DNA of 64,000 nt from an uncultured Alphaproteobacteria bacterium (GCA_963768225.1 CAVYGV010000005.1:347184-411183); one strand, 5' to 3'. Shown: positions 1 through 28,462, counted from the first letter of the stretch. Numbers and translations: made by a program. The notes: a model not told the origin generated them from the letters alone.

Positions 1-1
1 T

Positions 2-505
2 TGCGAAGTCTGTCACGGCGTGTCGGCGCAGGGTTTTGAGGGATATTATCCGATACCGCGCTTGGCGGGACAACAAATCGCCTATATCGAGAATGAGTTG
101 CAGGGCTTCGTCGAGCACAAGCGGACGAATAATATCATGTTCAACGTCGGGCATGTCCTTAGCCCGGCGATGATAAGAGCGCTTGCCACGAATTTTCACG
201 ATCTCAATCCAAAACCGCTCGGCGGCGCACCGAAGGAACTCGTGGCCACGGGCGAAAAAATCTTTAAAGAGGGAATTCCCGATGCCCAGGTTCCGCCATG
301 CGCTTCCTGTCACGGTCCGGAAGCTAAGGGTAACGAGATTTTTCCTCGTTTGGCGGGTCAGCTCTATCCCTACATCATCGGTCAATTGACGAATTGGACC
401 ACGGAGCGCGCGGAAACCAATTCGAATGTCATGGAGCCGATTGCGCATGGCTTGACCGCGCCGCAAATCAAAGCCGTCGCGGCTTATCTCAGTTATCTGG
501 AGTAA
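2..505 (+). CDS. Diheme c-type cytochrome (c4-like), 5' end truncated by the window edge
   Basis: The frame of ORF 20..505 stays open back to nt 2 and reads CEVCHG (first CXXCH). A second CXXCH (CASCHGPEAKG) follows. The PRLAGQ motif after each heme site is shared with the two downstream paralogs. Confidence 0.8.
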   Translation, partial: CEVCHGVSAQGFEGYYPIPRLAGQQIAYIENELQGFVEHKRTNNIMFNVGHVLSPAMIRALATNFHDLNPKPLGGAPKELVATGEKIFKEGIPDAQVPPCASCHGPEAKGNEIFPRLAGQLYPYIIGQLTNWTTERAETNSNVMEPIAHGLTAPQIKAVAAYLSYLE

Positions 506-509
506 TTCC

Positions 510-1235
510 GTGCGTATCCGCAAAGCATTGCAAACCGCTAAGGAAACGAGTGGCCGGAGTTTTCGGTGCGCGCGACGCCGCACCGCAAAGACCGCCGACT
601 TGGCAGCGGCGCTGGCTATTGCGATTCTGGCGGTTGGCTTCGCCCAGGCCGGTCATGCAGAGGATGTGAGGAGGATTGCCGCCTCAAGGCAAGATGTTCA
701 GGCAAAGATAGGCTACTGCAAGGACTGTCACGGACCGTCGGCACAGGGCTATCGCGGATACTTTCCGATACCGCGGCTCGCGGGGCAGCAACCCGAATAT
801 TTGGAAAATCAGCTGCGAGCCTTTATCGAGCACCGGCGGACGAACAATATCATGTTCAACGTGGCGCATGCGTTGAACCCGGGAATGATGTCGGGGCTCG
901 CCGCGGAATTTAAGAAACTCGATCCCCCGCCGATCGGTGGTGCGCCGAAGGGGCTCGTGGCTGCGGGAAAGAAAATCTTTGAAGATGGAGTTCCCGACGC
1001 CAATGTTGCCGCCTGCGCCGCCTGTCACGGTCCGGAGGCTACCGGCAGCGGAGAAATTCCCCGTCTTGCCGGTCAGCTTGATCCCTACGTCATCAAGGAG
1101 CTGACGAACTGGGGGAAAGAACGAGGACAAAATCCGGCAAGACCGGATACCTCAGCCGTCATGAGCCCGGTTGCGCATAGTTTGAACAAGTCGGAAATTG
1201 AAGCCGTTGCCGCCTTCGTCAGTTATCTCAAGTGA
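510..1235 (+). CDS. Diheme c-type cytochrome with signal peptide (paralog 2 of 3)
   Basis: Two CXXCH motifs (CKDCHG, CAACHG). N-terminal hydrophobic signal AAALAIAILAVGFAQA. Strong similarity to the upstream ORF (YFPIPRLAGQQ..YLENQL..HRRTNNIMFNV). Confidence 0.85.
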   Translation: MRIRKALQTAKETSGRSFRCARRRTAKTADLAAALAIAILAVGFAQAGHAEDVRRIAASRQDVQAKIGYCKDCHGPSAQGYRGYFPIPRLAGQQPEYLENQLRAFIEHRRTNNIMFNVAHALNPGMMSGLAAEFKKLDPPPIGGAPKGLVAAGKKIFEDGVPDANVAACAACHGPEATGSGEIPRLAGQLDPYVIKELTNWGKERGQNPARPDTSAVMSPVAHSLNKSEIEAVAAFVSYLK

Positions 1236-1290
1236 TTCCGTTTGGTTAGCTCGCCGCTCGCAAAGAGGCAGAACGCGTGGAATTCGGATT

Positions 1291-1893
1291 ATGAAATACA
1301 CCCGGTCAAAAATGACGATCCTGGCGATCGTTTTTACCGTTGGTTCCACCTTCGTTGGCCACGCGGAGAGCCTTGCCGTTCGCAATTGTACTTGGTGCCA
1401 TGGCGGCTCGGCGCAAGGCTATACGCCCGCGCCCCGGTTGGCTGGACAGAGATATCAATATCTTGAGAATGAGCTTGCGGACTTTCACGCCCACACGCGG
1501 GACAATCCACTTTCGCGACAATATATGTGGGGCGCTGCTGCAAATCTTACGTGGCAATCCGCACGCAACTTGGCAATGTATTTCTCGACGCTGCCTCCGG
1601 AAGCGGCCGAGGACGGCGACAGGGAGAACGTAGCTCTAGGCAGAACGATCTATCAGCAGGGAATGCCCGATTCCAATATCGTGGCATGCGTGGTTTGCCA
1701 TGGGCCGAACGCGGAGGGCGTTGCGCAAATTCCTCGGCTAGGAGGGCTGGCGTACACCTACCTGAAGCGGCGACTTGAGCAATGGGGTGAAGGCTACCAC
1801 GCGGCCGCAGGCCCTCCGATGCCAGACATTTCGAGCAGATTGTCACAGCATCAAATCGAGGCGCTCGCGTCGTATCTCAGCTTTGTCAAGTAA
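1291..1893 (+). CDS. Diheme c-type cytochrome with signal peptide (paralog 3 of 3)
   Basis: Internal ATG at 1291 (MKYTRSKMTILAIVFTVGSTFVGHA) gives a signal peptide. Two CXXCH motifs (CTWCHG, CVVCHG). PRLAGQ/PRLGGL motifs match the paralogs. Confidence 0.85.
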   Translation: MKYTRSKMTILAIVFTVGSTFVGHAESLAVRNCTWCHGGSAQGYTPAPRLAGQRYQYLENELADFHAHTRDNPLSRQYMWGAAANLTWQSARNLAMYFSTLPPEAAEDGDRENVALGRTIYQQGMPDSNIVACVVCHGPNAEGVAQIPRLGGLAYTYLKRRLEQWGEGYHAAAGPPMPDISSRLSQHQIEALASYLSFVK

Positions 1894-1920: not shown

Positions 1921-3021
1921 TTAGTTCATTGCGTGCCGGATATTCACCGATCCGGAGACGCCGTACCCACGCACAAAGTCGCGGCATGGCTCTACCAAAG
2001 AACGGTTCAACATCGCCAAGCCGGCTCCGCTCAGGATGATCGCGGGTGTTGCGGCTGCAAGCAGCGTCCAGCCGCGCCATTGTCCCGGCATGAAAGTCGC
2101 AGCGACAGCAAAGCCGGCCAGCCACTGTACCAAAAAGACGAAATATGCCCATTCGCCGAGTGTCCGGTCAACCCGCGCAAGCATTGCGGCTGGTCGCACC
2201 CCGGCGAGCCCGGCGACAACGACCGTAAACAGGACGATGCCAGCGTAGTAGCCAATTCCGAAAACATACGAGTGTGGGAAAATCCAGCCGCCGGCCGCCA
2301 TATTGGCGCACCAGACCGCAAACGCCGCTACCGCGACGCTCGGGGCGACGCACCACGCTTCGCGCTGACGCATGAAATACACGAGCGCACCCGCCGCGAA
2401 TGGAAGCACTGCCGACGGCACGGGAAAATAGTGCGTAGGCCAGCCAAGGTCTGCGTAGGTGCAGGCCAGATGATAACAAAGCCCGACTGTCAAGGCGACC
2501 AATGCCCAGCCGAGGCGTCGTGCGATCACCAGATAGAGCATGAGATACATTTGGACTTCGATCGCGATCGACCAGAACGGCACCATCCGAAATGCCGGAT
2601 TGGTAGTTTGCATAGGCAGCACCGCGAGATTGAGCAGCACATCGCGCAGCTGCATATCGGCATGCCAGAATTTCAGATACTCGCCGGACTCGTTCGGGAG
2701 CACGGCAACGACCAGGAGCGTGATCGCGCTTACGATATAGTAGGGCGGCAGGAGCCGAAGCGCGCGATTGATGCAAAAGCGTAACCCGTCAAAGTGATAT
2801 ACCTCGTTGAGCGCCGATGTCATGACATAGCCGGCAATGACGAAAAATCCGACTACCGCATAAAAGCCGAAATGCGCCAAGTAATTGCCGCCGACAAGGT
2901 GGCTGACGACGACCAGATAGGCCAACAGGAATCGCATCTGTCCGAACATAGATGCCTCACCAGCCGTGTTATCTGGCTCCACGTTTAGCGGCAAAAGAAT
3001 TGGTTTGCGGCTCGCTCGCAT
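1921..3021 (-). CDS. Acyltransferase family 3 integral membrane protein (OafA-like)
   Basis: Polytopic hydrophobic 366-aa ORF. The N-terminal FLLAYLVVVSHL motif is typical of acyltransferase_3. Alternative start at 2949 (MFGQMRF). Confidence 0.75.
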   Translation of the reverse strand: MRASRKPILLPLNVEPDNTAGEASMFGQMRFLLAYLVVVSHLVGGNYLAHFGFYAVVGFFVIAGYVMTSALNEVYHFDGLRFCINRALRLLPPYYIVSAITLLVVAVLPNESGEYLKFWHADMQLRDVLLNLAVLPMQTTNPAFRMVPFWSIAIEVQMYLMLYLVIARRLGWALVALTVGLCYHLACTYADLGWPTHYFPVPSAVLPFAAGALVYFMRQREAWCVAPSVAVAAFAVWCANMAAGGWIFPHSYVFGIGYYAGIVLFTVVVAGLAGVRPAAMLARVDRTLGEWAYFVFLVQWLAGFAVAATFMPGQWRGWTLLAAATPAIILSGAGLAMLNRSLVEPCRDFVRGYGVSGSVNIRHAMN

Positions 3022-3208
3022 CGAGCGAATTTCTCAATTCGTATTTTCCTCCAAGCGAATTAAGCGTGGGCTAATGTCACCCCGCGTCGACCCTGCGATT
3101 GGGCCGGGGCTGCCATGTCGAATTGCGGGCGAGTTGACTTAGATCAATGCGTTAATCCCAATCGATTTCTAGCCTAAGATTTATTTCGGCCGAAGAGAGG
3201 AGGGTCAA

Positions 3209-6399: not shown

Positions 6400-7860
6400 A
6401 TGGCAAAGCGGCATATGCGACGGCTGATCATTGCGTTCGTGATTGCGGCGGGCGCCGCGGTGGTGACCAAGCCCGCCATTGCCCAGATTTTTTATTGGGG
6501 CGACCGGCCTTCCAATCCGGGCTATTACCAGCAGCCGCAGCAGCGGGATTTGTTTTCGTTCCCATTCCTCGGCGGCCCGCGGTATCGGCCGCCGGTCGAT
6601 TATTCCAAGGCGCCGCCGCCGCGCAAATTGGAAACGCCGCCAACCTCTACCATCGTAGTGGTGGGCGATTCCATGGCCGACTGGCTCGGCCACGGACTCG
6701 ACGAGATCTACGCCGAGCAGCAACCTGATACCGGCGTGGTGCGCGACATCCGCGCCCCGGCCGGTCTCATACATTACGATGCGAAAAACGAGACGCTCGA
6801 CTGGCCGGGCGCCATCAAAGATCAGCTGGCGACGCAAAAGCCGAATGCTATCGTCGTCATGCTCGGCGTGAATGATCGCATATCGATCCGTGATCGGGCG
6901 CCCTCGGCCAAGGGGACGGAGCAAACGCCGACTGATAAAGGCGCTGCCGCCAATTCCGCAGCTGCATCCCAGCAGGGCGGCGCGGACGCCGCGGCGCAGC
7001 GTCCGGTTCCTGGCGGCAATTACGATTTCCGCACCGATCAATGGGCTGACCTCTACGTCAAGCGCATCGACGAAATGATCGCAGCGCTCAAGACCAAGGG
7101 CGTGCCGGTTTTGTGGGTCGGACTGCCCGCGCTACGCGGCACCAAGTCGACCAGCGATATGGCCTATCTCGATGAGCTGTATCGCGAGCGCGCGGAGCGG
7201 GCCGGGGTCTATTACGTCGACATCTGGGACGGTTTCGTCGACGACCAGGGCCGCTACTCGGTGGACGGCCCGGACTTCGAGGGCCAGATCCGCCGCCTGC
7301 GGGCCGCGGACGGCGTGCATTTCACCAAGGCCGGCGCGGTGAAGCTTGCAAGCTATGTCGAGCTCGAATTGCGCCGGGTCATGTCAGCCAAGGTCGCGCC
7401 GGTGGTTCTGCCGGGGCAGGCGTCGCCGGCCAAGCCCGGCGCGCCGCGACCCAACGTCGGCCCGGTGCTGCCGCTCACCGTCTCAAGCAGCAGCGAGGGG
7501 AGCGCCAACGGTGCCGGCGGTCTTCTCGGCGCCGGCAATCAACCCCCGCCGCTTGCGTCCGATCCACTCGCGGCGAAAGTGTTGGACCGCGGCGCGCCGA
7601 TTGCTGCGGTCGCCGGTCGCGCCGATGATTTTTCGTGGCCGCGGCCGGCCGGGCCGGCCGATGTCGCGCCGCAACCGGTTTCGCTCGCGCCGGGCACGCC
7701 GGCAAAGAGCGCTGCCACCGTGCACGACGAGGCGAAAAAACCGACCGACGCGAAAAAGGATGCCAAGAAGAAACCGGACGCCGATTCGGGAGCGGCAAAG
7801 ACCCGTACCTCGCCGCGGGCGGAACTCGACGGCGCGCCGGCCCCGGTCGGCTCGCGCTAA
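6400..7860 (+). CDS. SGNH/GDSL-type hydrolase family protein (DUF459-like) with Ala/Pro-rich C-terminal tail
   Basis: ATG at 6400 gives [22 protein letters not shown] (signal or anchor). [12 protein letters not shown] block I motif. ADGVHFT block V-like motif. Confidence 0.7.
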
Positions 7861-9299
7861 CGCGGCAACAGCGTCGCGCCCATCAGATATTTGTCGACCG
7901 CGTGCGCGGCTTGGCGACCTTCGCGGATCGCCCAGACCACGAGCGACTGGCCGCGGCGCATGTCGCCGGCGGTAAACACCTTGTCGAGCGAGGTTTTGTA
8001 GTCGTCGGTCGAGGCGGCGACGTTGCCGCGCGGGTCGAGTGCGAGACCGAGACTCTTGATCATCCCCTCGTGCACCGGGTGCACGAAGCCCATCGCCAGC
8101 AGGACGAGGTCGGCGGGAAGCTCGAATTCGGTGCCGGGGACCGGCTTGAACTTGTCGTCGGCGCGCACGCAATGCAGCTTTTTCACCGTGCCGTTCTCGC
8201 CGGTGAATTTCGTCGTCATCACCGCGAAGTCGCGCTCGACGCCTTCCTCGTGACTCGACGACGTGCGCAGTTTGAGCGGCCAATCCGGCCAGGTCAGCGC
8301 CTTGTTCTCATGCAGCGGCGGCTGGGGCATGATCTCGAAATTGGTCACCGACAACGCGCCTTGGCGAAACGAGGTGCCGATGCAGTCCGATCCGGTGTCA
8401 CCACCGCCGATAACGACGACATGCTTGCCGCCGGCGAGGATCGGTGCGCCGTCAGTTGGCGTCTCGCCTGAAACGCGGCGGTTCTGCTGCGGCAAAAAAT
8501 CCATGGCGAAGTGGATGCCCTTGAGCTCGCGGCCGGGGACCGGCAGATCGCGCGGCGCTTCGGCGCCGCCGGTGAGCACCACCGCGTCATAGTCCCTGAG
8601 CAATTTATCGGCCGGAACGTTCACGCCGACATGCGCGCCGTAATGGAACGTGACGCCTTCGGCCTGCATCTGCACAACGCGGCGGTCGACGTGATGCTTC
8701 TCCATCTTGAAGTCGGGGATGCCGTAACGCAAAAGCCCGCCGGCCTTCGCCCAACGCTCGTAGACATGAACGTCGTGGCCGGTGCGGGCGAGCTGTTGCG
8801 CGCAGGCCATACCCGCCGGTCCTGAGCCGACGATTGCGACCTTCTTGCCGGTCTGCGCCGCTGGCGGCTCGGGCTTGAGCCCCTGGGCGATGGCGCGGTC
8901 GGCGATCGCGCATTCGATCGATTTAATAGTGACCGGATTGTCGTCGATGTTGAGCGTGCAGGAGGCCTCGCACGGCGCCGGGCAGACCCGTCCGGTGACT
9001 TCCGGAAAATTGTTGGTCGAATGCAGATTCCGTGCCGCCTCGTCCCAGTTACCGCCATAGACGAGGTCGTTCCAATCCGGGATCTGGTTATTAACCGGAC
9101 AGCCCGGCGAGCCGGGCGCGACCGAGCCGGTGCCCATGCAGTAAGGCACGCCGCAATTCATGCAGCGGGCGGCCTGGATGACGTAATCCTTTTCCGGCAG
9201 CGGCAGGACGAATTCGCGCCAGTGATGAATGCGCTCGGCGACCGGCTCGTAGTCACGATCCTCGCGCTGGTATTCGAGAAAGCCGGTAATCTTGCCCAC
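7857..9299 (-). CDS. gltD: Glutamate synthase small subunit (NADPH)
   Basis: Full-length match by eye to GltD: CMNCGVPYC and CPAPCE Fe-S cysteine clusters, [19 protein letters not shown] and [13 protein letters not shown] dinucleotide folds. Confidence 0.95.
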
Positions 9300-9367: not shown

Positions 9368-13987
<4,620 letters not shown>

Positions 13988-14593
13988 CGTCCTACTCGCG
14001 ATCCTCCCGGCACCCCGACGCATGCGGCATCGGGCTCCGACAATCCACCTCTTCGCTCCTCCCTCCTATCCTCGCGCGCGGCGGATGGGACGAACGGAGC
14101 TTGCGCCCAGGGGCGAGTTACACTTATTGGAGGCAACCTTTGTGCCGCTTATGCGGCCGCTGGTTGCTTGTTCTTGCCGCCGCCCGGCGCGCCCTCGCCA
14201 CCAGCGGCTGACCCCCTGCGTCTCGTCGGATTTCCCAACCGCGCCTCGTGGGGTCACCAATTGGGACAGCAATGCTGTCCTATGCAGAACATGGCAAATT
14301 CTGCAATCCAATACAAGCGCCCACCCCTTACCTTTCGCTCCCCGCATGAAGGGTCGAGAGGAAAAGGAGACGAAAAGCGCTACCAAGCCCCGGTCGCTGC
14401 CGATTTTGCTAACGTTCCGCAGCTGAAGTGGATCATGGGACGGCCTTTCGTGCAATGGGCGCAGAGACGCGACGCTCCCGCTTGTGTGCAGCCCTGCCGA
14501 ACGTGCGGGGAGACGGGCCAACTCGATCGAACGCTGGTCCGGTCGGTTGCTTAGTCGCGCGGCAGGTACGGCCCGATCTGAGAGTCAGGATTG

Positions 14594-15085
14594 TCAGTCG
14601 ATCTCCGCCAGTTCCATCCAAGGCAGCGCCTCGACGGCGCACGGCCCGGTCGCCCAAATCACCAGGCACGGAACCCGCGAGGCAGAAAATCCAAGTCGCA
14701 AACTGATGCGCCGCCAAATTTCGCCGGCGTCCACTGGCAACGAGGGATAGTCGCGCAGGATGTGCCCGCGATAGACGAAGAACTCCCTGGCGTTGTCAGG
14801 CTCGCGGATGCGCATGGCTTGAAGATTTTCGCCGTCCAAGTCGACATTTTCGACATGGAGTTGGCAATCGTTCTTGCGGCCGAGAGAACCGTGTCCGAAT
14901 GCGCCGGGGTTCACCGCAAATCCCTGGCGCGCAAGCCAGTTTTCAATGGTTTGGTCGAGGCCGATGCCGGTAGGTCGCGGAGCTTCCTTCGGCCCGGTCG
15001 ATTTCAATGCGATCGTCGCCGCGAAAACGGCTGCGACGACACCCAATTTAAGTGCGCGCAAAAAGGTCACGACGATGTCCGGCAA
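14594..15085 (-). CDS. Hypothetical N-terminally membrane-anchored protein encoded directly after the exosortase-like gene; possible accessory partner
   Basis: 163-aa ORF with one N-terminal hydrophobic helix (LKLGVVAAVFAATIAL). It overlaps or abuts the stop of the upstream gene (TAA-A-TTG at 15050-15044). The start codon is ambiguous (TTG 15085, GTG 15070 or TTG 15046). I recognise no family signature. Confidence 0.45.
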   Translation of the reverse strand: MPDIVVTFLRALKLGVVAAVFAATIALKSTGPKEAPRPTGIGLDQTIENWLARQGFAVNPGAFGHGSLGRKNDCQLHVENVDLDGENLQAMRIREPDNAREFFVYRGHILRDYPSLPVDAGEIWRRISLRLGFSASRVPCLVIWATGPCAVEALPWMELAEID

Positions 15086-15929
15086 CGCAAATCAGCACGA
15101 TTAATATCAGGGTCAACTGGCCGGCAATCATGGCCCCGATTGGCCCGTGAACCAGTTCGAAGTTCCGCGGATCGGCAGCCATCAAGCTCAGGCGACCCAG
15201 ATTGATGGCGAATGCCGAAGCGATTGCGGCTGCGCACCATACCGTGTCTGTCATTCGCCAAGGTCGTCCGAGCGCGCGGTTCGTAGCAACCCAAGCAACC
15301 GCGGCCTGGGACATGTTATGGAATGACGAGCAAGCTGCAAATATTTGCAGGACGCGGCCGTCGCGCGGGTACAAAATGACGTTGTCACTATACGGCACAT
15401 GCAAAAGCGTACCGACCAGGAAGGCATCGACCTTGAGCAGCGGTGCGCCAGCGTATTGCAGAAACAGAGGACCCCAGAACACCGGCGCGGCGAGCGCGGC
15501 GAATACGGGCGCAGCTCGGCGCAAAGGACTGCCGATGGAGCTGGTCCTGAAGACGTAAAAGGCAAGTCCGCTCAGACAGATCCAGCTGAGCGAAGTTACC
15601 GGTACGGCAATGAGGAGAACAGCGACAGCCGCCAGCGCCGCGTCGCCGGAACGGATCGGCCGCGCGGCGGCCGGCTCCATCGTTATCGCGCAGGCTGCAA
15701 TCCAGGCCGCCCAGACGATGGCGCTGATCCCGAACGTGTTAGCCAAAGCCGTCCAAAGGCCCAGATCGATGATGCTCGCCGATATATACGGGATCAATCC
15801 GTTGGCGGAGGCGAGGATGAGCAGCGCAGCGAGCAACTGCTCGCGCGTCGCGAATGTCGACGACGTCGTTTCGTTGTCGGCGGGCGGAATGAGACCGGTT
15901 TCGCGACTCGCCGCGACGCGGAAGGACAA
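15048..15929 (-). CDS. Exosortase/archaeosortase-family polytopic membrane protein (putative transpeptidase)
   Basis: Multi-TM protein with the family's Cys...Arg...His arrangement: IFAACSSFHN, then AINLGRLSL about 46 residues later, then LVHGPIGAMIAG 15 residues after that. It lies immediately downstream of two PEP-CTERM-like mini-genes. The start is uncertain. TTG at 15929 is the first in-frame start after the upstream stop. The ORF-track ATG at 16040 overlaps the small gene in another frame. Confidence 0.6.
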   Translation of the reverse strand: MSFRVAASRETGLIPPADNETTSSTFATREQLLAALLILASANGLIPYISASIIDLGLWTALANTFGISAIVWAAWIAACAITMEPAAARPIRSGDAALAAVAVLLIAVPVTSLSWICLSGLAFYVFRTSSIGSPLRRAAPVFAALAAPVFWGPLFLQYAGAPLLKVDAFLVGTLLHVPYSDNVILYPRDGRVLQIFAACSSFHNMSQAAVAWVATNRALGRPWRMTDTVWCAAAIASAFAINLGRLSLMAADPRNFELVHGPIGAMIAGQLTLILIVLICVAGHRRDLFART

Positions 15930-15939
15930 GCCGCGCGAC

Positions 15940-16101
15940 CTAGCAGCGCAGCGCGCGGACCGCGAAATAGACGCCGGCAAGAACTGCCGCTGCCGGCAGC
16001 CCGACCCCCGCAATGGGGCCCGGCGCCGCACTCCCCGCATAGACAGGTTCAGCAGCGAGAACCAGCATGGCCATTCCCAGCAGCGCTGTCATCATTCGCA
16101 T
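15940..16101 (-). CDS. 53-aa pre-peptide: signal peptide plus PEP-CTERM-like (PGP-TM-RALRC) sorting signal, copy A (not in the ORF track)
   Basis: Hand translation: MRMMTALLGMAMLVLAAEPVYAGSAAPGPIAGVGLPAAAVLAGVYFAVRALRC*. GGGGA lies 7 nt upstream of the ATG. A paralog sits 287 bp away, and the conserved blocks differ only by synonymous changes. Confidence 0.65.
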   Translation of the reverse strand: MRMMTALLGMAMLVLAAEPVYAGSAAPGPIAGVGLPAAAVLAGVYFAVRALRC

Positions 16102-16137
16102 GGTGCGATCCCCACCGGTAGAATATCAATGTTATCC

Positions 16138-16166
16138 AAGTTATCTTCGACCGAGTGACCGGTCAA
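16138..16166 (-). promoter_or_regulatory. Candidate sigma70-type promoter for small gene copy A
   Basis: Minus strand TTGACC-N17-TAACTT. The equivalent element is conserved in copy B. Confidence 0.3.
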
Positions 16167-16226
16167 CGCGTGTGAATGTCATCATTGCGCAACCGAGCCG
16201 ATGGACTGGCCGACAAGCCACGCGGC

Positions 16227-16388
16227 CTAACGGCGCAACGCGCGGACCGCGAAATAGACACCGGCAAGAACCGCCGCCGCCGGAAGTCCGACCCCCGCAA
16301 TCGGACCCGGAGCGCCGACTCCCGCATAGACCGGTTCAGCGGCAAAGACGAGCGTGGCAATCCCTAATAACGCAATCCTTATTCCCAT
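16227..16388 (-). CDS. 53-aa pre-peptide: signal peptide plus PEP-CTERM-like (PGP-TM-RALRR) sorting signal, copy B (not in the ORF track)
   Basis: Hand translation: MGIRIALLGIATLVFAAEPVYAGVGAPGPIAGVGLPAAAVLAGVYFAVRALRR*. Same GGGGA-N7-ATG context. The 26 codons PGP...LR are identical in protein to copy A despite 8 nucleotide differences. Confidence 0.65.
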   Translation of the reverse strand: MGIRIALLGIATLVFAAEPVYAGVGAPGPIAGVGLPAAAVLAGVYFAVRALRR

Positions 16389-16425
16389 GGTGCGATCCCC
16401 ACCGGTAGAATATCAATATCTTTCC

Positions 16426-16454
16426 ACGTTACCTTCGACCGAGTGAACGGTCAA
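16426..16454 (-). promoter_or_regulatory. Candidate sigma70-type promoter for small gene copy B
   Basis: Minus strand TTGACC-N17-TAACGT. The position matches the copy A element. Confidence 0.3.
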
Positions 16455-16488
16455 CGCGCGTGAATGTCATCATTGTGAAACCGAGCCG

Positions 16489-17379
16489 ATGGACTGGCCG
16501 ACGATCAGACACTGGCTGCTCCCCTGGACCGACAGCGATGACGCCTGGGTGAGCGTCGTTTTCTGGCTGGGACTTTTCAGCATCGGCGGATTGGAACTGC
16601 TCGTGCCAGTGCATCGAAATAGCCGGCGTGAGCGGCGCTGGCCCGCTAATTTTGGTTTGGGATTGATCAACCTCACTTTGTTGTCGCTGCTGCCGGCGTC
16701 CAGCGTGTTGGCCGCGGTGTGGGCCCAGAGCCATGGCGTGGGGCTGTTGAACTGGCTGCGCGTGCCGTGGATTGAGGCTACCCTCGCTACGATCGCGATC
16801 CGCAGCTTCTCCTCTTATGCGATGCATGTCGTGCTGCACCATGTAGACTTCCTTTGGCGCATCCACCGCGTTCATCACTTCGATATGCAGGTGGATGTAT
16901 CGACAGGCCTGCGCACGCATCCGTTCGAATATGCGCTCGCCTTCTTCCTGGAGCTGACGCTTGCGGTCGCCTTCGGTCTCTTACCTTGGGCGGTATTGTG
17001 CTATGATTTGGCGGACTCGCTCTTTGCGTTTCTCTCGCACGCAAATATTCGCGTCCCGGCGCTGCTGGACCGCCTGTTACGCCTCCTGATCGTGACTCCG
17101 GCCCTGCATGCGATGCATCACTCGTCATGGCGTCCCGAGACGGACAGCAATTTCGGAACTGTTTTGACTTTGTGGGATCGTATTTTCCGCACTTATCGCG
17201 ATCCGCAAGTCGATCGACGCGGCGACCTGCAGTTCGGTTTGTCGGACGTCCGCGATGAACGTACGGCGGACCTCTGGTGGCAGTTGAAATCGCCTCTGGT
17301 GAAGTTCGCGCCCGTCCAATCAGCTGTACCGGAGCACGAAATTACCGATACTCCGCGAACGCCGGTGGCAGTCGAATAA
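16489..17379 (+). CDS. Fatty acid hydroxylase / sterol desaturase family membrane protein
   Basis: Histidine boxes HVVLHHVDFLWRIHRVHH and PALHAMHH. N-terminal TM segments. Divergent from the small-gene pair. Confidence 0.8.
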   Translation: MDWPTIRHWLLPWTDSDDAWVSVVFWLGLFSIGGLELLVPVHRNSRRERRWPANFGLGLINLTLLSLLPASSVLAAVWAQSHGVGLLNWLRVPWIEATLATIAIRSFSSYAMHVVLHHVDFLWRIHRVHHFDMQVDVSTGLRTHPFEYALAFFLELTLAVAFGLLPWAVLCYDLADSLFAFLSHANIRVPALLDRLLRLLIVTPALHAMHHSSWRPETDSNFGTVLTLWDRIFRTYRDPQVDRRGDLQFGLSDVRDERTADLWWQLKSPLVKFAPVQSAVPEHEITDTPRTPVAVE

Positions 17380-17611
17380 GCGGGCGGCGGACCTCATTGC
17401 GGTCTCAGCCCGGCATCGTGCCGACCAGAGGGCGAACCCCTTCCCACGACGGGCCTGTTCTCTACCGGAAGGAACGCCATCCGGATCTAATACCGCTTCC
17501 ATAGCTGATTGAATCGGAATCGTCGTGGTGCTTGGCGGCGTGCATGGGATGGGGGTTTCTCCTTCGAGGCGAGGTGTGATTCGCTGGAACCATCTGATTC
17601 GGAGGGAACAG

Positions 17612-18103
17612 ATGGTCAAATGCTCCAAAGGCCAAGTCCGTCGATTGAAGACAGCGCTGCGCTGGAAAGGAGATCTGCCGCGGCGCCAGCGCATCCAGAT
17701 GGTGCTGCTGCGCGAAAGCGAGATGATGCAGCCTGCGATTGCCGAAGCGATGGGCGTGTCGCTGAGCACAGTAAACCGGGCGCATATGGCCTATGACGGC
17801 GGCGGGCTCAAGGCGCTCAAATCCAAGCCGAGCGGCGGACGCCAGCGCGAAAACATGACCTTGGCCGAGGAAAAGGCCTTGCTCGTTCGTTTTGCCAAAG
17901 CCGCCGGGGCCGGCGAGATGTTGAACATCCACGATCTCAAGGCGGCCTACGAAAAGGCCATTGGGCACGAAACCAGCAACAGCACGGTCTATAATCTTCT
18001 GGCCAGACATGGCTGGCGCAAACTGATGCCGCGTCCGTTTCATCCCAAACGCGACATCGCGGCTCAAAATGCTTTTAAAAAAGCGGTTTTCCAAATGCTG
18101 TGA
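17612..18103 (+). CDS. IS630 transposase, N-terminal HTH part (OrfA)
   Basis: ATG at 17612 preceded by GGAGGG. HTH-like MQPAIAEAMGVSLSTVNRA. Ends ..AFKKAVFQML* just after an A6 run. Confidence 0.8.
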   Translation: MVKCSKGQVRRLKTALRWKGDLPRRQRIQMVLLRESEMMQPAIAEAMGVSLSTVNRAHMAYDGGGLKALKSKPSGGRQRENMTLAEEKALLVRFAKAAGAGEMLNIHDLKAAYEKAIGHETSNSTVYNLLARHGWRKLMPRPFHPKRDIAAQNAFKKAVFQML

Positions 18104-18657
18104 GGAAAGCTAGGCGAGCTGCCGCCAGGCGCGGTCGTCGCTTGCGAATCATGTTCGCCGATGAAGCGCGGTTCGGCCGAATCAACCGGCCGCGGCCGTG
18201 CTGGGCTCCGATCGGAACGAGGCCCGAGGTCGCCGCCCAGCTCATCCGCGAATACATCTATTTGTACGGCGCGGTCTCTCCGAAGGACGGAACTTGCGTC
18301 TATCTGATCATGCCGACATCGAATACAGCGTGCTTCCAGGCCTTCCTCGACGTCCTCTCGCGAAAGTTTGCCAGGCAGGATATTCTCTTGGTTCTCGACG
18401 GCGCCCCCAACCATCGCTGCAGCAACCTCGCGCTTCCCGACAATATCTCGCTGCTGTTCCTGCCGCCCTATTCGCCAGAGCTCAACCCCAAGGAAAATCT
18501 CTGGGATGAAATCCGCGAGAAAATCTTCAAGAACTACGCTCTCAAATCCATCGACGCCGTCCGCACCAAGCTCAAGCACGCAATCCTCTATATCGAGCGC
18601 AATTCCAAAACCGTCCAATCAATCACGTCCTTCCCCTATATCCTCAAGTCACTCTGA
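18100..18657 (+). CDS. IS630 transposase, DDE catalytic part (OrfB, -1 frame relative to OrfA)
   Basis: DEARFG, LVLDGAPNH and PPYSPELNPKENLWDE motifs. The frame is open from the A6 run at 18077-18082, so a fusion would read ..AFKK-SGFPNAVRKA... Confidence 0.8.
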   Translation: MRKARRAAARRGRRLRIMFADEARFGRINRPRPCWAPIGTRPEVAAQLIREYIYLYGAVSPKDGTCVYLIMPTSNTACFQAFLDVLSRKFARQDILLVLDGAPNHRCSNLALPDNISLLFLPPYSPELNPKENLWDEIREKIFKNYALKSIDAVRTKLKHAILYIERNSKTVQSITSFPYILKSL

Positions 18658-28335: not shown

Positions 28336-28432
28336 TGCGGTAGCGAGAGGTTCCCTCCCGTTACCGTCGCCCTCCTTGGGCGTTTCCTCCCTAGACTTGG
28401 GCCGCTCCCGCAAGGTGAGCGGCCCTTTTTCT
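28336..28432 (+). ncRNA. Candidate trans-acting sRNA with three CCUCC(C) anti-Shine-Dalgarno-like motifs
   Basis: CTTGTA-N17-TATGTT promoter-like element at 28299-28327. Hairpins follow, including CGCCC-UCCUU-GGGCG. A single-stranded UUUCCUCCCUA stretch is present. Strong terminator GGGCCGCUC-N9-GAGCGGCCC plus UUUUU (28398-28429). It runs opposite to both flanking genes and has no plausible ORF. Confidence 0.5.
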
Positions 28433-28462
28433 TGCCCGGTTCCTTGGCCGAGGAATTCGGCG

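Follow-up and report, generated by a model that had tools for sequence, protein, structure and literature searches.

A 64-kb stretch of DNA from an uncultured Alphaproteobacteria bacterium (GCA_963768225.1 CAVYGV010000005.1:347184-411183; hereafter the window) encodes, between positions 14594 and 17379, a polytopic membrane protein with Cys, Arg, and His motifs, two 53-residue peptides upstream of it, an anchored protein downstream of it, and, divergently, a protein resembling fatty-acid hydroxylases. Is the membrane protein an exosortase or archaeosortase, what would it process, and does the hydroxylase belong to the same pathway? A preliminary description of the window had proposed a compact, dedicated exosortase-like module. 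We compared the window with related records, designated in the style L001 for loci and P0001 for proteins. All five open reading frames (ORFs) are present on the strands given in that description, the exosortase-like module as a whole was confirmed, and the interpretation placed on it is supported. Our reading, which we hold to be probable, is that the locus represents an uncurated exosortase subfamily with an obligate partner protein, a new tripartite sorting signal, and a hydroxylase acting in the same pathway.

An exosortase-like membrane enzyme

The three motifs of the membrane protein (AACSSFHN, AINLGRLSL, and VHGPIGAMIAG) were found exactly in the order and spacing that had been described; counted in a 330-residue ORF, C237 is followed by R283 after 46 residues and by H298 after another 15. 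Exosortases and archaeosortases are Cys/Arg/His peptidases or transpeptidases that work within the membrane. A triad of these three residues has been inferred for them (bioRxiv 10.1101/2023.06.07.544157), and mutagenesis of ArtA showed that its predicted active-site residues are important (PMC6098224). An exhaustive HMMER search with a query alignment of seven relatives recovered 1114 representatives at 50% identity with E <= 1e-3, 296 of them with E <= 1e-30; most are proteins of ~280 residues matched from end to end. A word-indexed protein search yielded only seven relatives, far below the number from the exhaustive search. The 115 members sampled for alignment and family scans share 23-56% identity with the window enzyme, and their profile alignments have E-values from 1e-45 to 1e-122. 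Invariant in all 115 are P110, C200, S202, N243, R246, and H261 (numbering of the 293-residue protein), so that the Cys proposed as catalytic is conserved in the orthologs together with the Arg and the His.

The exosortase/archaeosortase family model TIGR04178 was matched at E <= 0.01 by 100 of the 115 members (best E = 8.8e-9) and by 53 at E <= 8e-5, a value that corresponds to its 23-bit cutoff by extrapolation. The other models matched in the NCBIfam scan were nearly all exosortase/archaeosortase models, and all these matches were weak. The window enzyme itself scored 18.1-18.4 bits against TIGR04178 (cutoff 23, E ~0.002, model positions 2-93 of 97) and had no Pfam match at E <= 1. It thus lies below the curated threshold, an outcome that the preliminary description had named as speaking against its own assignment and that we likewise count against ours. 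The explanation that the protein is no exosortase-family peptidase, and that its profile match and its Cys, Arg, and His are coincidental, can draw on these scores, on the Pfam model Exosortase_EpsH (PF09721) being matched by only eight of the 115 members, and on the fact that no solved structure was found for comparison. We consider it extremely improbable in view of the invariant residues, the share of members that reach TIGR04178, the nature of the secondary matches, and the tripartite signal encoded beside the enzyme at most loci; the assignment stands because this family-wide evidence overrides the sub-threshold score of one member.

None of the named Xrt, Crt, or Art subfamily models fits the family (best E from 2e-7 to 1e-2, with 1-21 of the 115 members each), and the window enzyme had a match to just one of them, ArtD, where its 14.7 bits fall far short of the cutoff of 125. 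By transitive evidence from sequence comparison, we assign the enzyme to the exosortase/archaeosortase superfamily, as a putative uncurated subfamily outside the named Xrt, Crt, and Art ones.

The AlphaFold2 (AF2) model of the enzyme, built from the 115-sequence alignment, is all-helical with ~8-9 long helices (predicted local distance difference test, pLDDT, 93.6; predicted template modelling score, pTM, 0.88) and one short beta-hairpin directly precedes Cys200. A polytopic protein is also what a crude hydropathy scan suggests. By the positive-inside rule, the loops at residues ~84-93, 130-134, and 220-225 and the C-terminal tail would be cytoplasmic, which would put Cys200, Arg246, and His261 at the periplasmic ends of helices. 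Neither the enzyme profile searched against PDB sequences (no match at E <= 10) nor a Foldseek comparison of the model with the PDB (best E = 0.2, TM-score 0.15-0.24) returned a meaningful match.

Mini-substrates and a PGPIAGxGLP sorting signal

Two mini-substrates had been described directly upstream of the enzyme; both are there (Table 1), and their homologs lie immediately upstream of the enzyme at most related loci. Each consists of a signal peptide followed almost at once by a tripartite tail, made up of the motif [AV]PGPIAGxGLP, a transmembrane (TM) helix, and Arg/Lys residues. Mini-2 matched hidden Markov models (HMMs) of the minis and of the signal at E = 7.5e-20 and 6e-12, with evidence of the same kind for mini-1, and the DNA pattern for PGPIAGxGLP has two sites in the whole window, one in each mini, with zero expected from shuffles. 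Between residues 26 and 52, the two minis differ at nine codons, and all nine differences are synonymous; replacements are found in the signal-peptide part. The restriction to synonymous differences indicates that the predicted mini coding sequences are under purifying selection on the translated sequence.

The loci compared were 12 contigs obtained by exact-protein look-up, 28 genome loci found through one peptide pattern, and three plasmid hits; all statements on taxonomy rest on the 28 genome loci and the three plasmid hits and are not a census. At most of the ~40 distinct loci, a signal-bearing protein is encoded within 2.5 kb of the enzyme, usually immediately upstream; none was found near the enzyme at L040, or among the adjacent proteins at L162. 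The motif, TM helix, and basic cluster are seen in 48 distinct C-terminal tails, from which a wider consensus, [AVT]P[GAL]P[IVM][AIVL]GxG[LI]P, can be read that runs directly into the hydrophobic helix and is followed by the Arg/Lys cluster. Sortase, exosortase, and rhombosortase signals are tripartite as well, and in PEP-CTERM and PGF-CTERM the motif abuts the helix (bioRxiv 10.1101/2023.06.07.544157). The signal described here has this architecture, occurs on unrelated proteins, and is encoded next to the enzyme, in line with the generic criteria for tripartite sorting signals and enzyme-target adjacency laid down in the same work.

No NCBIfam model was found for the signal: those for LPXTG, MYXO-CTERM, PFE-CTERM, and PEP-CTERM matched weakly, on the helix-plus-basic parts only, and PEP_CTERM (TIGR02595) reached 8.9 bits on the isolated signal against a cutoff of 16, with no match to the minis. 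The motif reads PGP, PAP, or PLP without Glu, unlike the PEP motif. A literature search returned nothing for the signal strings or for candidate '-CTERM' names. Judged from its sequence, PGPIAGxGLP-CTERM is a putative new sorting signal with no curated model.

In the mini-substrates of the window and its nearer relatives, the signal peptide ends in an A-x-A site, as a rule with Gly next, and no more than 3-9 residues separate it from the motif; the mini genes are present in 1-6 tandem copies per locus. At loci that lack the hydroxylase, the adjacent substrate carries a spacer of 18-100 residues, mostly rich in Gly, His, and Asn. The spacers of this clade (L014-L026, L161) are of low complexity, for example HGGGGHGGGGNHG and GGGGGHGGGHGGSHG, and such substrates could possibly be metal-binding or glycine-rich surface peptides. 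One contig, L013, has in addition a second, divergent enzyme paralog (963..1889 and 2528..3064 region) with two further mini genes on the opposite strand, whose tail reads ...PAPLLGVGLPAIAAVGGVLLGSRLFKRK, and with no adjoining partner gene.

The signal also ends larger proteins: one of 150 residues in L010 and one of 189 residues in L005, encoded ~2.2 kb upstream of the enzyme. A DNA-pattern scan of metagenomes gave at least 131 ORFs with the signal in at least 120 loci, most with the motif ~30 residues before the stop; among the matches listed, most are unrelated secreted proteins of 200-500 residues from soil metagenomes. These signal-tagged proteins are carried by L041-L160 (for example L088 106..1452, L079 16..1224, and L105 3173..4690), and one of them is distantly similar to GDSL-type esterases. 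A tblastn search of plasmids with a 35-residue large-cargo signal gave no match, probably from low-complexity masking. Because the same signal ends many large secreted proteins, the description of the module as 'dedicated' is not borne out. These proteins, like the 189-residue protein of L005, would be expected if the enzyme were a general, many-to-one sorting enzyme for large tagged surface proteins, the minis being incidental, abundant, or regulatory and the hydroxylase a syntenic neighbour only. We judge that account unlikely. The metagenome contigs are short, so the large-cargo proteins cannot be assigned to enzyme-carrying genomes, and the genomic contexts, considered below with the hydroxylase, bear on it from both sides.

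A partner protein adjoining the enzyme

Wherever a related locus reaches far enough beyond the enzyme, a homolog of the partner protein is encoded next to it on the downstream side. In six cases, the partner is fused to the C-terminus of the enzyme, giving proteins of 453-479 residues: two Microvirga loci (L014, 2328..3719; L161, 5887..7326) and four database representatives (P0013, P0014, P0060, and P0137). The partner gene overlaps the enzyme stop, always adjoins the enzyme, and is sometimes fused to it; translational coupling of the two genes, as had been suggested, is probable. The anchored protein had been described as 163 residues long and as beginning at a 'TAA-A-TTG' junction with the enzyme stop. 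Its position directly downstream and its N-terminal TM helix stand, but not its length, as a protein of 158 residues is likelier.

That shorter protein would most likely start at GTG 15070, since a 95%-identical public protein (P0008) has 158 residues and since the same kind of overlap is seen at other loci; the start overlaps the enzyme stop by 23 nt, and the overlap is 20-23 nt at the other loci checked. The 163-residue version with a TTG start was rejected in its favour, the TTG of the junction not being the likely start.

Across 28 orthologs, C69 and C144 are the only invariant residues of the partner, and two further positions, a Lys that follows the TM helix and a Pro, come close to invariance. 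The basic, presumably cytoplasmic tail of the enzyme, the geometry of the fusions, and the conserved Cys pair together lead us to infer a periplasmic domain with a disulfide. Scanned against Pfam and NCBIfam at E <= 5, the 28 orthologs matched no consistent family, and none of them matched EpsI, in agreement with the earlier remark that the protein has no EpsI signature and may represent a new family. All 18 database relatives are labelled 'hypothetical'; they came from word-indexed searches that found one and then 18 sequences and that undercount the family. The AF2 model of the partner (pLDDT 76) has a TM helix and a small alpha/beta domain, for which no match was found among PDB folds (best E = 0.09, TM-score 0.24). 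In position and architecture, the partner appears to be an analogue of EpsI, with no detectable membership of the EpsI family.

Co-inheritance with a di-iron hydroxylase

The divergent protein scored 88.5 bits against PF04116 (cutoff 31, E = 6.6e-25), and its translation contains the His boxes HVVLHH, HRVHH, and HAMHH. Its start lies 100 bp from that of mini-1, as expected from the 100-bp shared region that had been described. Its only NCBIfam match was OlsE (NF052566), at 53 bits against an equivalog cutoff of 475, and six orthologs scored 63-88 bits; with scores so far under the cutoff, it is a distant relative of OlsE and not an ortholog. A sequence search of the PDB found no relative. OlsE hydroxylates C4 of the ornithine head group in ornithine lipids (PMC12971839).

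Co-occurrence of the four kinds of gene, whose absence had been named as speaking against the module, was found. By local HMM mapping, a hydroxylase ortholog transcribed away from the first substrate gene is present in 19 distinct loci (the window, L002, L005, L008, L011, L013, L023, L025, L027, L029, and L031-L039), which belong to three deep clades and include Novosphingobium, Allosphingosinicella, Alteraurantiacibacter, and unclassified alphaproteobacterial metagenome-assembled genomes; these are only part of the family. The substrates are of the cargo-less type at all 19 loci. About 15 loci have no hydroxylase: those of Microvirga, Bradyrhizobium, Azorhizobium, Devosia, Methylobacterium, Aquabacter, and Rhizobiaceae, and L010. 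A neighbor-joining tree of the enzyme groups the hydroxylase-free loci in a single clade, around which the hydroxylase-linked loci fall into three deep lineages. The simplest history would be an ancestral linkage lost once, which a midpoint-rooted distance tree can only indicate.

Some of the genomic contexts favour the account of a general sorting enzyme with a syntenic hydroxylase. One whole clade does without the hydroxylase, and in Sphingomonadales the block stands within a conserved Lon/HrpB ... dnaX-ybaB neighbourhood, so that part of the co-occurrence there is vertical synteny. The families enriched around the hydroxylase-linked loci are likewise Sphingomonadales housekeeping genes (Lon, HrpB, dnaX, ybaB), with a phosphatidylethanolamine-binding-protein (PEBP) gene in one clade. 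Polysaccharide genes, which are typical of classical exosortase loci, accompany the enzyme and partner in two hydroxylase-free cases. On the Rhizobium sp. WL3 plasmid NZ_CP042825.1 (L162, 5890..7255), both genes (WP_147884957.1 and WP_147884958.1, each labelled 'hypothetical protein' by the annotation pipeline PGAP) lie inside an exopolysaccharide/lipopolysaccharide (EPS/LPS) cluster with GDP-fucose synthase, a sugar transferase, and glycosyltransferases of the WcaI family and other kinds; L010 has a Bac_transf gene and a GT4 gene after the two. The hydroxylase-free loci have no other conserved neighbour, and sugar or glycosyltransferase genes were seen in ~2-3 of 14. Against the syntenic account stands the recurrence of the block in at least five flank contexts and three deep clades (~30% enzyme identity); the flanking genes differ among the window, L002, L005, L008, L011, and L013. 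The similarity of the hydroxylase to the window copy declines in about the same order as that of the enzyme, and within this sample there is a perfect correlation between having the hydroxylase and having substrates of the cargo-less type.

L005 (7685..8248), and also L006 and L007, have a second PF04116 hydroxylase gene, a short one (187 residues), right after the partner gene, so that in this lineage two hydroxylases flank the module. PEBP genes (PF01161) lie directly downstream of the partner in L008 (7368..7928), L023 (~7360..7965), and L031 (~7310..7879), and L005 has two more distant copies near the module (1966..2787 and 1..512); no PF01161 gene is present in the window.

Proposed pathway and alternatives

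From the gene content, homology, invariant residues, signal architecture, and co-occurrence described above, we infer a pathway that covers topology, cleavage, transpeptidation, an acceptor, and a role for the hydroxylase. The 53-residue pre-peptides would leave the cytoplasm through Sec, and signal peptidase would cleave them behind VYA, yielding peptides of 31 residues that have Gly at the N-terminus and stay anchored in the inner membrane through their C-terminal helix. Near the periplasmic face, where the enzyme's Cys, Arg, and His would be located, Cys200 would attack at or next to the PGP...G motif abutting the helix. The helix and the basic tail would be lost, and an N-terminal remnant of ~5-12 residues would be passed to an acceptor via a thioester intermediate. 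The partner, translationally coupled and sometimes fused, would act as an EpsI-like subunit, probably with a disulfide in its periplasmic domain. The co-inherited hydroxylase would work in the same pathway and most probably hydroxylate the lipid acceptor or a lipid-linked product.

A lipid as acceptor or product is suggested by the link to the hydroxylase and, by analogy, by archaeosortase genes: the synteny of artA with pssA and pssD led to the finding that these are needed for ArtA-dependent lipid anchoring (PMC7157517). A more specific version for the hydroxylase-linked clades, in which the remnant is transferred to a membrane lipid that the hydroxylase prepares or modifies, so that the product would be a small lipopeptide or a peptide-decorated head group, is speculative and, as we see it, rather doubtful.

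The same genes might instead form a factory like those of ribosomally synthesised and post-translationally modified peptides, the minis being precursors that the enzyme merely releases and the hydroxylase modifying the peptide, for example at Pro or another side-chain carbon. One to six tandem precursor-like genes per locus, with a variable short segment before a conserved recognition sequence, would suit such a scheme, and OlsE, the closest relative with a name that the hydroxylase has, modifies an amino-acid moiety and not an acyl chain (PMC12971839). It is nevertheless improbable: the 'core' would be just 3-9 residues of Gly, Ala, Pro, and Val, OlsE is only distantly similar (53-88 bits, with the cutoff at 475), and a signal that large enzymes carry as well speaks for sorting or anchoring and not for peptide maturation. 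Hydroxylases of this superfamily, moreover, generally have their active sites on the cytoplasmic side, away from a motif in the periplasm, a geometry that is awkward for peptide hydroxylation and for our own proposal.

We give hardly any credence to a further possibility, the head-to-tail polymerisation of the minis, in which the exposed N-terminal Gly of one peptide would attack another acyl-enzyme in the style of oligo-Gly sortase substrates and build a Gly/Pro-rich, elastin-like polymer. At the predicted signal-peptidase site, nearly all minis do have Gly after A-x-A, low complexity marks the remnant (for example GVGAPGP), and the substrates of the hydroxylase-free clade are Gly-rich and of low complexity. 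The idea is, however, purely inferential, leaves the hydroxylase unexplained, and has to accommodate large-cargo proteins with the same signal; we know of no exosortase that polymerises its substrates.

Our preferred reading, an exosortase subfamily with partner, signal, and hydroxylase in one pathway, has further points against it besides the hydroxylase geometry and the sub-threshold scores of the window enzyme. The absence of the hydroxylase from one whole clade, which includes Rhizobium, means that it is dispensable for the core reaction, and the vertical synteny in Sphingomonadales accounts for part of its linkage. A cargo of a few residues has no obvious function, and a review of 2018 described exosortases as being without experimental analysis at that date (PMC6098224).

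If the more specific version, with transfer to a membrane lipid, is right, the module would give a bacterial exosortase its first acceptor pathway defined by genetics, and it would mean that cargo can be reduced to almost nothing, the modification itself being the product. The question of what exosortases attach their substrates to could become testable with only four kinds of gene. The mature mini-substrates, at ~31 residues, are small enough for intact-mass analysis, their signal is conserved, and the hydroxylase, as a co-inherited lipid-type enzyme, would be a candidate source of the acceptor, parallel to artA with pssA and pssD (PMC7157517).

Organisation of the locus in the window

The features of the window are collected in Table 1. 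On the minus strand, the genes within 14594..16388 follow the order mini-1, mini-2, polytopic membrane protein, and partner of ~160 residues.

Table 1. Positions and properties of the module and other features in the 64-kb window
Feature	Position	Strand	Description
Partner protein	14594..15070	-	158 aa from the likely start GTG 15070; N-terminal TM helix and ~120-aa alpha/beta domain; two invariant Cys
Exosortase-like polytopic membrane enzyme	15048..15929	-	293 aa from TTG 15929; Cys200, Asn243, Arg246, His261 conserved
Tandem duplication of mini gene and upstream control region	15930..16502		units 15930..16214 and 16217..16502, each ~286 bp
Mini-substrate 2	15940..16101	-	53 aa; predicted signal peptide to VYA/G, SAAPGPIAGVGLP, TM helix, RALRC
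Mini-substrate 1	16227..16388	-	53 aa; predicted signal peptide to VYA/G, VGAPGPIAGVGLP, TM helix, RALRR
Divergent control region, mini-1 to hydroxylase	16389..16488		100 bp
Membrane di-iron fatty-acid-hydroxylase superfamily protein	16489..17379	+	296 aa; His boxes
IS630-type element	17525..18657	+	HTH_29/HTH_33 ORF 17525..18103; DDE_3 ORF 18100..18657
mmgR/suhB small RNA (RF00519)	28362..28440	+	70 bits, E = 2e-12

The start of the enzyme was set at TTG 15929 because its homologs have 261-285 residues, which fits the 293-residue product, and because the alternative start, ATG 16040, reads through mini-2. The 330-residue gene model from ATG 16040 was rejected as running through mini-2 and as too long for the family. 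The public gene call P0001 corresponds to this longer model and is probably mis-started; in a different frame, it takes in all of the C-terminal part of mini-2 (15940..16040), which would hide mini-2 from annotation.

The two duplicated units align locally at 85% identity over 288 columns, the non-coding part being better conserved than the signal-peptide part, and the upstream unit extends into the first 14 nt of the hydroxylase coding sequence. Facing the hydroxylase, at 16382..16411 of the plus strand, is a sigma-70-like site, of which a duplicate copy lies at 16095..16124. Upstream of each mini, the minus strand carries TTGACC-17-TAACGT, which was recognised by eye only, the promoter scanner giving no call.

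The module is flanked by gltB (9368..14023, taken from translation alone) and, directly after the hydroxylase, by the IS630-type element; a DoxX protein and a beta-eliminating lyase are also encoded in the flanks. The IS630 copy that had been named as a flank thus has its helix-turn-helix (HTH) and DDE_3 ORFs; the two overlap by 4 nt and may be joined by a frameshift. The GC content is slightly lower over 16.7-18.9 kb of the window. No glycosyltransferase is encoded within 5 kb of the module in the window, in keeping with the statement that no EPS glycosyltransferase cluster accompanies it. The mmgR/suhB small RNA was the sole Rfam match at the gathering threshold in the 64 kb; its family is in keeping with an origin in the Alphaproteobacteria.

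Comparison with known systems

EpsI is encoded downstream of its enzyme and is sometimes fused to it; behind an N-terminal TM helix comes a domain that lies outside the cytoplasm. The partner shares with EpsI (TIGR02914, PF11984) the place directly downstream of the enzyme, the occasional C-terminal fusion, and a TM helix followed by a presumably non-cytoplasmic domain; it differs in having no sequence similarity that we could find, in being shorter (~160 residues), and in its two Cys as sole invariants. The hydroxylase resembles OlsE as a PF04116 membrane di-iron His-box enzyme of Alphaproteobacteria, and OlsE is its sole named NCBIfam relative; the 53-88 bits of the family against the cutoff of 475 set the two apart as non-orthologous.

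The VPLPA-CTERM/XrtD system is, like the module, alphaproteobacterial. The V-P-x-P-x with which large-cargo signals begin (VPGPIAG...) presumably echoes VPLPA, and we take this as a lead only. The VPLPA-CTERM model was absent among the signal matches at E <= 10, and the XrtD model was matched by only two of the 115 enzymes (best E = 0.002).

With exosortase and archaeosortase systems in general (XrtA/EpsH with PEP-CTERM; ArtA with PGF-CTERM), the module has in common a polytopic enzyme that aligns to TIGR04178 and has Cys, Arg, and His in the same order, a tripartite signal whose motif abuts the TM helix, a small accessory membrane protein that is encoded downstream and is sometimes fused, and the presence of some members in polysaccharide clusters. 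Unlike those systems, it fits no named Xrt, Art, or Crt model, its motif PGPIAGxGLP has neither Glu nor Phe, its substrates are almost without cargo, a hydroxylase is co-inherited, and its proteins are labelled 'hypothetical protein' by PGAP. A literature search found no paper on cargo-less exosortase substrates and nothing linking an exosortase with a fatty-acid hydroxylase. Current annotation misses the 1114-member enzyme subfamily, the partner family, and the PGPIAGxGLP-CTERM signal of many secreted proteins in soil metagenomes; with curated models for the three, surface proteomes could be better annotated in alphaproteobacterial carriers of the system such as Bradyrhizobium, Microvirga, Methylobacterium, and Novosphingobium.

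The ArtA/PssA/PssD system resembles the module in that genes of lipid metabolism accompany that of a sortase-like enzyme in the genome. It differs in that its linked enzymes synthesise a head group, in place of a di-iron hydroxylase, in being archaeal and not bacterial, and in its sorting signal. The logic of an enzyme, a tripartite signal, and an accessory protein is established and not new here; what appears to be new is the signal, the partner, the near-absence of cargo, and the link to a lipid-type enzyme.

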